Of a DNA stretch of 64,000 nt, positions 4,014 through 5,178 are shown piece after piece. How positions within the stretch are numbered: position 1 is the first letter of the stretch; each line of letters starts with the position of its first letter. The position numbers and the translations under genes are program-made. The stretch is from the IMG/VR virus record IMGVR_UViG_3300026488_000019, positions 20,996 to 84,995 of that record; one strand, given 5' to 3'. The notes under the pieces were generated by a model. It ran no database searches and was not told where the DNA came from. It saw nothing but the letters and a program-made list of their open reading frames with translations. The stretch comes from a virus.

Positions 4014-5178
4014 TTTTCTTCCTCCACTTGGGGAAGGTTATATTAAGAGCTTCCCTATTCAGAGTTAAATCTGTTACAATGGATTTAGCTGTAAAATACC
4101 TACAAATCTTAGTTATGATGTAGCTTCCTGTATATAGGTCGTAAAAGTGCTTTTGTTTAGAGTCTATGTCAAACAACTTCAAGTGGTCTAAAACTTGATG
4201 TTTTATAAACCTACCAGTATATCTTATGTTTACTTCCAGTCTTGAAAAGTGCATTAAGTTAGAAAGATTCTTAGATTTAGCATAAACCCAATGCTTATGA
4301 ACATTGGAAAAATCTACTTTTACATAATCCTTTAATCTCAGATGTTCTATATCGTAAATGGTTTTATTATCAGGAACTAATGAGTAGGAAAGTTTATTAC
4401 TGGGTACAATAGGTTTACAGCAGAGCTTATTTTCAGTCTCATTATAACCAGCTATCTTCTTGGTTGATAACTTATTGATAAAACCAGTCCTTGAGGTTAC
4501 TTTTATGTCTCCTTCAAAAATGAAATCCCTAGAGCCTAACTTTTCCTTTCTAGGGAAAGCATTCCAAGGTTCTTGTCCTACTATATAAGGTAAGGATAAA
4601 CATCTAAATCTTCCAAAACTCGTAATTCCTATTAAGTAAAACTCTTCTTCAGATATATAAGAGTTGAGCCAAAGTTCATTTATAAACTTTCTGTTAGGAA
4701 TGTTATACTGAATCCAAGTCATTTTATCCCTAGAACTAGGGAGGACTTGAACTCAGGCAAAATCTTCTTTGGCTACCCTTTCTATAACATAGGAGGAAGG
4801 TTTATCTTCAAAATACCTTATTTTGGATTTATATAGGTAATCAGGCTTTCGTAAAATACCTGATAAAACTACTTCAAAGGTTTCACCAGTTTTGGAATAC
4901 TCCTTTTCTAAAACTAACAGTTTAGTAGTAATAGATTTGGTTTCAGTTTGACCTACTGTTACTATTATTTCAGTTTCCTCAGCTAACCACTTCAACAACT
5001 TTAAGTCGTCTGTTACAAACCTTAACTGAAACTCAGGTAAGTGGTTACCTGTTTTCTCTATTAGTAAGAAGTCTATAAAATTTTCTCTGTTTATAAAGTC
5101 GTGTTTTTCTATCGTTCCATCTTTCCTTCTTATTACAATAGTAAAAAGTAAATACTGCTGGTTTTCATACTTTACCAT
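3994..5178 (-). CDS. Baseplate hub protein (gp27 / late control D-like), 394 codons with an in-frame UGA at codon 142
   Basis: ORFs 4753..5178 and 3994..4722 are in the same frame, joined by TGA (4753-4755) plus 10 sense codons: KEDFA-(UGA)-VQVLPSSRDK-MTWIQYN. The C-terminal YTGSYIITKI motif and the position just upstream of the spike fit a hub. Confidence 0.75.
4727..4742 (-). promoter_or_regulatory. SECIS-like hairpin 3' of the in-frame UGA in the hub gene
   Basis: UCCCUA-GUUC-UAGGGA; stem +11..+26 and loop +17..+20 after the UGA. Confidence 0.6.

Follow-up and report, generated by a model that had tools for sequence, protein, structure and literature searches.

Adjacent hub-like and spike genes of an uncultured contractile-tailed phage: two genes probably recoded at a hairpin-associated UGA, with selenocysteine as a candidate residue

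Introduction

To our knowledge, the decoding of a UGA that depends on a hairpin within the open reading frame (ORF) is known in bacteria only for selenoproteins, in which the UGA replaces the codon of a catalytic Cys. In such genes, for which Escherichia coli fdhF is the prototype, selenocysteine (Sec) is inserted with the help of SelB at an in-frame UGA, and a stem-loop, the Sec insertion sequence (SECIS), lies immediately downstream within the coding sequence. Here, we describe the same layout in two neighbouring genes of a phage, a baseplate hub-like gene (5178-3994) and the spike gene (4013-3465), in a window of 64,000 nt (the whole stretch of DNA analysed; bases 20996-84995 of the single 84,995-bp virus record IMGVR_UViG_3300026488_000019, 34% G+C). 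The phage genes differ from bacterial SECIS genes in that they encode virion structural proteins and have the UGA at positions that are not Cys/Sec positions, the Sec itself being predicted from the sequence. We argue that the hub and the spike are each one gene and very probably undergo programmed UGA recoding directed by the hairpin; for the whole statement, which adds SelB-dependent Sec insertion as a gate on expression, we see the chances as evenly balanced.

Other systems resemble this locus in part. Phage Q-beta reportedly makes A1, a low-copy structural protein, when its host occasionally reads the coat UGA. The likeness lies in a low-copy phage structural protein made by occasional reading of a UGA; in Q-beta, however, reading past the UGA lengthens the protein at its C-terminus and the main, functional protein is the short one, whereas here the UGAs lie inside conserved domains, the short products (141 aa and 26 aa) have no evident use and a hairpin follows each UGA. 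Read-through in eukaryotic RNA viruses is similar in the stable RNA structure ~8-10 nt after the stop, the murine leukaemia virus (MuLV) gag-pol stop being said to have a pseudoknot about 8 nt downstream, and differs in the use of eukaryotic ribosomes and release factor and of pseudoknots or long stems. We know of no bacterial or phage example of structure-stimulated read-through of this kind. Stop-codon-recoded phages (crAss-like, Lak and others) use TAG or TGA as sense in late genes, with many in-frame stops and often with suppressor tRNAs. As in these phages, the in-frame stops of the present, uncultured phage are in late structural genes; here, however, there are two sites only, TGA ends other genes in the ordinary way, and no tRNA gene is present.

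Results

A single frame across the UGA in both genes

An earlier reading of the DNA (the original prediction) had proposed that two ORFs of the hub gene are one frame joined by a UGA and a hairpin. The geometry was confirmed: TGA 4755-4753 is followed by exactly 10 sense codons (GTT CAA GTC CTC CCT AGT TCT AGG GAT AAA, 4752-4723) and then by ATG 4722-4720, and the translation of 5178-3994 gives 141 aa, a stop, 252 aa and a stop, which makes a joined frame of 394 with the TGA counted. An exhaustive HMMER search with the joined hub found 415 homologues at E <= 1e-3, the best 150 of which were inspected, including two that are the window's own halves. Among these best 150, 147 of the 148 non-self matches span codon 142 in one stretch, the single exception being P0136, with two stretches. 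The relatives encode one uninterrupted protein and not two separate ones, and the view that the two hub ORFs are one gene is borne out both by these single-protein homologues and by the conserved residues between the TGA and the ATG. A tblastn search with the joined hub gave 28 cultured-phage records, 25 of which align without interruption to 80% or more of its length. The alignment with the relatives is co-linear and in frame 0, without a gap at the junction, which excludes an intron, an intein or a frameshift there. Bypass as in T4 gene 60 is excluded as well, since no matching landing codon for GCC was seen in the hub and the frames are co-linear without a gap.

The residue that aligns with codon 142, which had been singled out for comparison, lies in a variable column of 76 homologues (V in 20, P in 13, T in 10, F in 9 and further residues, with Trp in 2 and Cys in 0). 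Two of the residues encoded between the TGA and ATG 4722 are well conserved, S149 in 61 and D151 in 70 of the 76, and both are present in the phage, so that a restart at ATG 4722 would lose them. The column of Met153, which this ATG encodes, holds Gln in 58 and Met in 18 homologues; judged from this alignment, Met153 is an ordinary family residue and not evidence for a start.

The adjacent spike gene, which the original prediction did not cover, has the same arrangement. Its ATG at 4013, with GGAGG seven bases upstream, opens a frame that reads MIIALADTLKDEKFDITSKLWVGEVI-TGA-NADPLQLGRIKV..., and the TGA falls inside the conserved N-terminal OB-fold motif G-x-V-[VI]-X-N-x-D-P-x-x-L-G-R-[IV]-K-V. 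At the aligned position, four true homologues have N, D, S and D, and all three related IMG/VR records of the spike are free of an internal stop. The 12 codons from the TGA to the next ATG encode NADPLQLGRIKV, compared with NNDPKKLGRIKV in a 56%-identical relative (9 of 12 identical). A start at Met40 would thus lose the conserved NADPLQLGRIKV strand and cut the first strands of the OB-fold.

Public gene calls split both genes, the hub into proteins of 141 aa (P0004) and 242 aa (P0001), while the spike is called as a 143-aa protein (P0152). Searches for closer relatives found none in viral contigs, which were scanned with the phage hub, or in genome contigs and, in metagenome contigs, only the contig of the complete relative G002; word-index searches returned only two hub relatives and, for the spike, only the window's own ORF.

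Stable hairpins after the two UGAs

The hub hairpin that had been read from the letters, UCCCUA(4742-4737)-GUUC(4736-4733)-UAGGGA(4732-4727), was reproduced by folding, as the upper part of a two-tier stem-loop whose lower helix of 13 bp (4756-4744 with 4720-4708) begins one base before the UGA and includes it. The minimum free energy (MFE) of the 71-nt hub fold is -23.6 kcal/mol (z = -3.8), and none of 200 shuffles was as stable; the same was true for the spike fold (z = -2.8, 0 of 200), the hairpin of which is made of the D-P-L-Q-L-G-R codons. The 4-nt loops, GUUC in the hub and AGUU in the spike, both start 16 nt after the UGA. At 70 °C, the predicted stabilities are -8.4 kcal/mol for the hub and -5.4 kcal/mol for the spike. 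When 26-nt windows at the hub-like placement were sampled from coding sequence, 0.9% of 3498 were equally stable, and the corresponding figure for the spike was 0.03%.

Such hairpins are also rare for the encoded peptides. With the peptide fixed and synonymous codons redrawn according to the usage of the phage, 9 (hub) and 10 (spike) of 5000 sequences each were as stable as the real one, and the hairpin arms carry rare codons (GTC, CTC, TTG and GGG make up 3%, 9%, 9% and 11% of their families). The 85-kb genome contains 3012 TGA trinucleotides, 13 of which are followed by a stem of at least 6 bp whose 4-nt loop begins 16 nt after the TGA; in only three of the 13 does the loop show G then G/U at positions 1-2 or 2-3, and the in-frame TGAs of the hub and the spike account for two of these. 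In the TGA-free relatives (L001-L003), no hairpin was found at the matching places, the same motif (DPKKLGR in the spike) being written in AT-rich codons. Seventeen ORFs of at least 50 aa end in TGA, and a SECIS-type structure follows only the hub N-terminal ORF and none of the 16 others (one of which is cut by the contig end). Hence, a hairpin follows both internal TGAs (2/2), compared with 0/16 of the other TGA ORF ends. The same codons after the UGA encode conserved residues and have been selected to form a stable hairpin.

A second hairpin is predicted right after the spike hairpin, at 3881-3905 (minus strand), with an 8-bp stem AUAAAGGU/ACCUUUAU and a 9-nt loop that includes the in-frame AUG 3896. 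This fold is predicted at both 37 and 60 °C and is lost at 70 °C.

Similarity to bacterial SECIS elements

According to the legend of Fig. 2A of PMC13188914, the bacterial SECIS (bSECIS) consensus has a loop of 3-9 nt, an upper stem of 4-16 bp, a G in the first two loop positions, a distance of 16-37 nt from the UGA to the loop and an MFE of at most -7.5 kcal/mol. On a 63-nt fold, both phage hairpins fit (hub: 16 nt, GUUC, 6 bp, -20.8 kcal/mol; spike: 16 nt, AGUU, 7 bp, -18.7 kcal/mol). They share with bacterial SECIS elements the small apical loop with an early G then U, and the UGA-to-loop distance lies within the range allowed in that legend (PMC13188914); the lower helix of the hub in addition includes the UGA. 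In both genes, the UGA is in frame within a conserved ORF and coding continues after it. The consensus is loose, as 222 of the 3012 phage TGAs pass it (7.4%), and 0.37% pass at an MFE of -17 or below. When the energy of the contiguous stem only is considered, the upper hairpin of the hub, at -6.8 kcal/mol, fails the threshold.

Two TnpB genes (OrfB_IS605 plus a Cas12f1-like TNB domain) lie within the phage replication region, at 51235-52749 (minus strand) and 53477-54895 (plus strand). Relatives of the first TnpB, 58-67% identical, are found mainly in metagenome-assembled genomes (MAGs) of vent Aquificota (Hydrogenothermaceae/Persephonella, Desulfurobacterium). Copies of the second are 84-86% identical in Desulfurobacteriaceae MAGs and 86-98% identical (partly over short stretches) in one 'Deltaproteobacteria' MAG, with many copies per genome. 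All five MAGs with the closest copies of the second TnpB have a selD with one in-frame TGA, and four of the five have SelB; across the Aquificota genomes, 78 of 178 have a selD over the cut-off, most of them with an in-frame TGA. The whole phage DNA is present in a sequencing run labelled as a hydrothermal vent metagenome, a possible source. Transposase similarity suggests that the host is probably a vent bacterium related to the Desulfurobacteriaceae and able to decode Sec. A search for the host through DNA matches to 178 Aquificota genomes gave 13 matches (29-339 nt, 66-93%); the three inspected (L063-L065) were without a repeat array, and the matches were taken as chance.

SECIS elements of a Desulfurobacteriaceae-like clade (selD, two fdh-type genes and NiFeSe hydrogenase; Aquificota genomes, L067-L093, L097, L105, L143, L148-L150) show two loop types, GGUC/GGUCU and AGUU/GUU. 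In 28 Desulfurobacteriaceae-like loci, the selD SECIS reads ...AGCCC-GGUC-GGGCU... with 17 nt from the UGA to the loop; its variants have the loops AGUU (G174) or GUU, or one compensatory stem change (GUCC/GGAC for GCCC/GGGC, in L082). The two fdh-type elements are GGCC-GGUCU-GGCC (18 nt) and GGCCA-GUU-UGGCC (19 nt), and the large subunit of the NiFeSe hydrogenase (DPUIAC) has CCACCA-GUU-UGGUGG at 20 nt in four of four cases. These are small two-tier stem-loops with -4 to -9 kcal/mol at 70 °C, like the phage elements. In G174, a MAG with a phage-like TnpB, the selD element is ...CCC-AGUU-GGG..., with a loop identical to that of the spike. Since the SECIS loops of this clade are of the same types, the phage loops AGUU and GUUC are of types that the SelB of this clade must read. 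The phage elements are thus alike in loop type (AGUU/GUU/GGUC), with a spacing 1-3 nt shorter. In five MAGs, the PF00384 genes have no internal stop, and the PF02662 genes have none either.

Discussion

Alternative explanations of the two UGAs

The evidence for one gene and for a selected structure would fit equally well with a read-through that needs neither SelB nor selenium, in which the hairpins, placed at the mRNA entrance, slow termination by release factor 2 (RF2) and a normal tRNA reads the UGA, giving a few percent of full-length product. From work in E. coli, tRNA-Trp is the most likely near-cognate reader of UGA, and the aligned positions are variable and include Trp in 2 of 76 hub homologues; there is no Cys homologue at either site, and the stem, 9-10 nt after the stop, is near the spacing that viral read-through stimulators are said to have. 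However, both loops carry the G-[G/U] of the SECIS consensus and are of loop types found in the probable host clade, neither of which a generic roadblock needs, both stops are UGA, and no bacterial case of a simple downstream hairpin driving such read-through was found among titles and abstract openings in the literature. We regard this explanation as rather unlikely. More improbable still is that the genes are truly split and translationally coupled, with the ribosome stopping at the UGA, melting the hairpin that hides an AGGGA or GGAGG resembling a Shine-Dalgarno (SD) sequence in its 3' arm, and restarting at the in-frame ATG (4722 or 3896). Both 3' arms are indeed purine-rich and SD-like with the ATG 4-9 nt on, both 5' arms resemble the anti-SD, and ORF finders as well as public gene calls list the halves separately. 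Such a split would nevertheless remove conserved residues after the stop (S149 and D151 of the hub, NADPLQLGRIKV of the spike) and cut the spike within the first OB-fold strands, leaving a 26-aa peptide; moreover, Met153 is a normal family residue (18/76), no split form occurs among the 148 non-self best hub homologues, and the chance of both restarts being in frame is 1 in 9.

The location of the in-frame TGAs in late structural genes is also what recoded phages show, and TGA might be sense throughout the genome, either because the host uses code 4 or 25 or because the phage recodes its late genes with the help of a suppressor tRNA. The standard code, however, already gives ~94% coding, and TGA as sense gains no more than TAG as sense. 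Of 113 ORFs, 17 end in TGA, several of them in ATGA overlaps, and the 16 besides the N-terminal ORF of the hub meet the next stop within 0-27 codons; only two in-frame TGAs occur on the coding strand in 85 kb, and neither the phage genome nor the complete relative G002 has a tRNA gene, suppressor or otherwise. As the ordinary TGA ends lack a hairpin, stops follow soon after them and the coding statistics agree, the phage uses TGA as an ordinary stop, and a reassigned code has a negligible probability. A further explanation is that the phage genome is defective or wrongly assembled and that the two stops are nonsense mutations of pseudogenes or sequencing errors. This would fit with a single metagenome contig that has no close relative in protein collections, and with relatives at 43-56% identity that have sense codons at these sites. 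Against this, the contig of the source run shows 0 differences over 2001 nt, and the hub TGA is kept in a 242-nt contig (4656-4897, 3 differences, ~99% identical) of run X2 (2025), from a study other than the 2018 source; the hub TGA must be intact there because the listed changes are all plus-strand G>A, which cannot alter the plus-strand TCA. In run X3, an 86%-identical contig (3865-4003, 19 differences in 139 nt) retains the spike TGA, with no difference listed at the TGA or the hairpin and a synonymous difference in the first codon after the TGA (AAC/AAT); runs X2-X4 cover the stretch in part. The frames downstream of both UGAs are intact and conserved, and two independent accidents would hardly both be UGA and both have a rare, codon-selected hairpin at an equal distance. 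We therefore consider such an error very improbable.

Points that weigh against selenocysteine insertion

Several observations count against the proposal that each gene is recoded through its hairpin, and in particular against Sec as the inserted residue. The support for read-through and for a Sec residue is drawn from sequence analysis, and the conservation of the UGAs in runs X2 and X3 is read from a table of differences and not from the contig letters. The usual hallmark of a selenoprotein is a Sec/Cys pair, and no such pair is seen here: none of the 76 hub homologues has Cys in the column of codon 142, and the spike homologues have N, D, S and D. The hub and the spike are structural proteins without known redox chemistry. 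The spacing of 16 nt is the lower limit of the consensus, and the loop G-U lies 17-19 nt after the UGA, compared with 19-22 nt in the SECIS elements of the host clade, i.e. 1-3 nt closer.

When 22 SECIS elements of the host clade (20 of them selD) were combined in a covariance model, it found neither phage hairpin at E <= 10, which, the model being dominated by selD, is weak evidence; its best match in the window (E 0.54) lies elsewhere, and the third match, 26567-26537, concerns a TGA that by calculation is not in frame. A search of 3700-5000 against Rfam at E <= 10 gave six chance-level matches, none at the hairpins. The host assignment takes transposase similarity as its sole basis; SelB and selD were over the cut-off in none of the four Hydrogenothermaceae/Persephonella/uncultured Aquificales MAGs that have relatives of the first TnpB, and no CRISPR-type match was found in the Aquificota genomes.

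Proposed mechanism and significance

If each gene is recoded with SelB, the lower pairing would already be melted when the UGA is in the ribosomal A site, and the upper hairpin, 9-10 nt downstream of the UGA, would be placed at the mRNA entrance. There, it may act as a bacterial SECIS, binding the SelB-GTP-Sec-tRNA(Sec) of the host, which would decode the UGA in competition with RF2. The inserted residue would probably be non-catalytic, as neither UGA is at a Cys position of its family. A T4-type baseplate requires about three copies each of hub and spike per virion. The hairpin could then serve as a low-efficiency gate, which would keep both proteins scarce and tie their synthesis to a host with a working Sec machinery, termination at the UGA giving a 141-aa hub fragment and a 26-aa spike peptide as by-products. 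That the Sec machinery is used as a gate and not for its chemistry, Sec at structurally tolerant non-Cys positions of the two low-copy proteins that nucleate the baseplate throttling virion assembly and making it depend on a Sec-competent, selenium-supplied host, is a tentative proposal, which we consider possible but somewhat doubtful.

In the present phage, a signal of the selenoprotein kind lies at two positions, neither of them a Cys, in essential virion proteins encoded by adjacent genes. No publication on either mechanism in phage structural genes was found in the literature listings and passages searched, on which supplementary lists of selenoproteins could bear, and the words 'phage', 'virus' and 'viral' are absent from the main text of the 2026 review PMC13188914. 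If the residue is Sec, two proteins of the virion, the hub and the spike, would contain selenium, and the phage particle would have selenocysteine that serves as a translational gate; Sec recoding would then have a regulatory role and not a catalytic one. If the decoding is independent of SelB, it would be a hairpin-driven read-through in bacteria, and either outcome would be new for phage biology. Both genes are broken up by gene callers, and current annotation therefore does not reveal devices of this sort. In practical terms, a cassette of 30 nt that determines read-through in thermophiles would be small and open to testing.

Genomic context and further observations

The two genes belong to a contractile-tail module (Table 1). 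The gene order tape measure, PmgG-like, wedge/sheath-like, hub, spike, gp25-like, wedge is also found in four cultured phages with hub homologues, and the position between the tape measure and the spike is as expected of a hub of the gp27/gpD/Mu gp44 type. The label 'gp27/gpD-like hub' is given solely on this gene order and on an Atlas lead, in which GpP/Gp44, Phage_GPD and YqbQ clusters appear at 0.96 with 156-165 shared features. The hub matches phrog_25710 (of unknown function, E 1.1e-4) in PHROG; Pfam assigned 0 families to the hub protein, none of 77 members of its family matched a hub family there, and a PDB profile search with the hub sequence gave chance matches only. The spike matches phrog_430, 'baseplate hub subunit and tail lysozyme', with E 1.9e-16 over residues 19-110, a region that spans the TGA, and its motif can be aligned with annotated proteins of that name, as expected of an OB-fold spike; the Pfam family Phage_base_V scored 13.7 bits, under the cut-off of 23.8.

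Table 1. Positions of the hub, the spike, their recoding elements and the surrounding tail genes in the window.
Feature	Position	Strand	Remarks
Sheath	9966-11546	-	Contractile-tail module
Tape measure with transglycosylase domain	6213-8144	-	Contractile-tail module
PmgG-like protein, then small wedge/sheath-like protein	Between tape measure and hub	-	Gene order
Baseplate hub-like gene	3994..5178	-	Single frame, 394 positions; ATG 5178, internal TGA codon 142, final TGA 3996-3994
Hub two-tier stem-loop	4708..4756	-	Predicted fold; lower helix and upper hairpin
Hub in-frame UGA, codon 142	4753..4755	-	Translation
Hub ATG (Met153 of joined hub)	4720..4722	-	Start of 242-aa ORF by ORF finders; within internal loop/lower helix
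Spike gene, gp5/gpV-type OB-fold N-terminal domain	3465..4013	-	Single frame, 182 positions; ATG 4013, internal TGA codon 27, final TGA 3467-3465
Spike in-frame UGA, codon 27	3933..3935	-	Translation, motif alignment
Spike hairpin CCUCUCC(3923-3917)-AGUU(3916-3913)-GGGGAGG(3912-3906)	3906..3923	-	Predicted fold
Spike in-frame ATG (Met40)	3894..3896	-	Start of 143-aa product on record (P0152); GGAGG of hairpin 3' arm upstream
gp25-like protein	2816-3181	-	Tail module
Wedge subunit	1503-2807	-	Tail module

The C-terminus of the hub is ~13 residues longer than in its two closest relatives, and this extension (3994-4042, minus strand) overlaps the spike ATG 4013 by 20 nt. The spike is directly followed by a 96-aa ORF (3178-3468, minus strand) that occupies the position of an annotated PAAR or W-type protein in cultured relatives and matched no PHROG at E <= 0.001. 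Elsewhere in the window, the large subunit of ribonucleotide reductase (31865-35305, minus strand, 1146 aa) carries a LAGLIDADG domain at residues 653-739 within the barrel domain, which is probably an intein. In the family A DNA polymerase (59021-61720, plus strand, 899 aa), an N-terminal domain of the uracil-DNA-glycosylase superfamily (residues 27-174) precedes the 3'-5' exonuclease domain.

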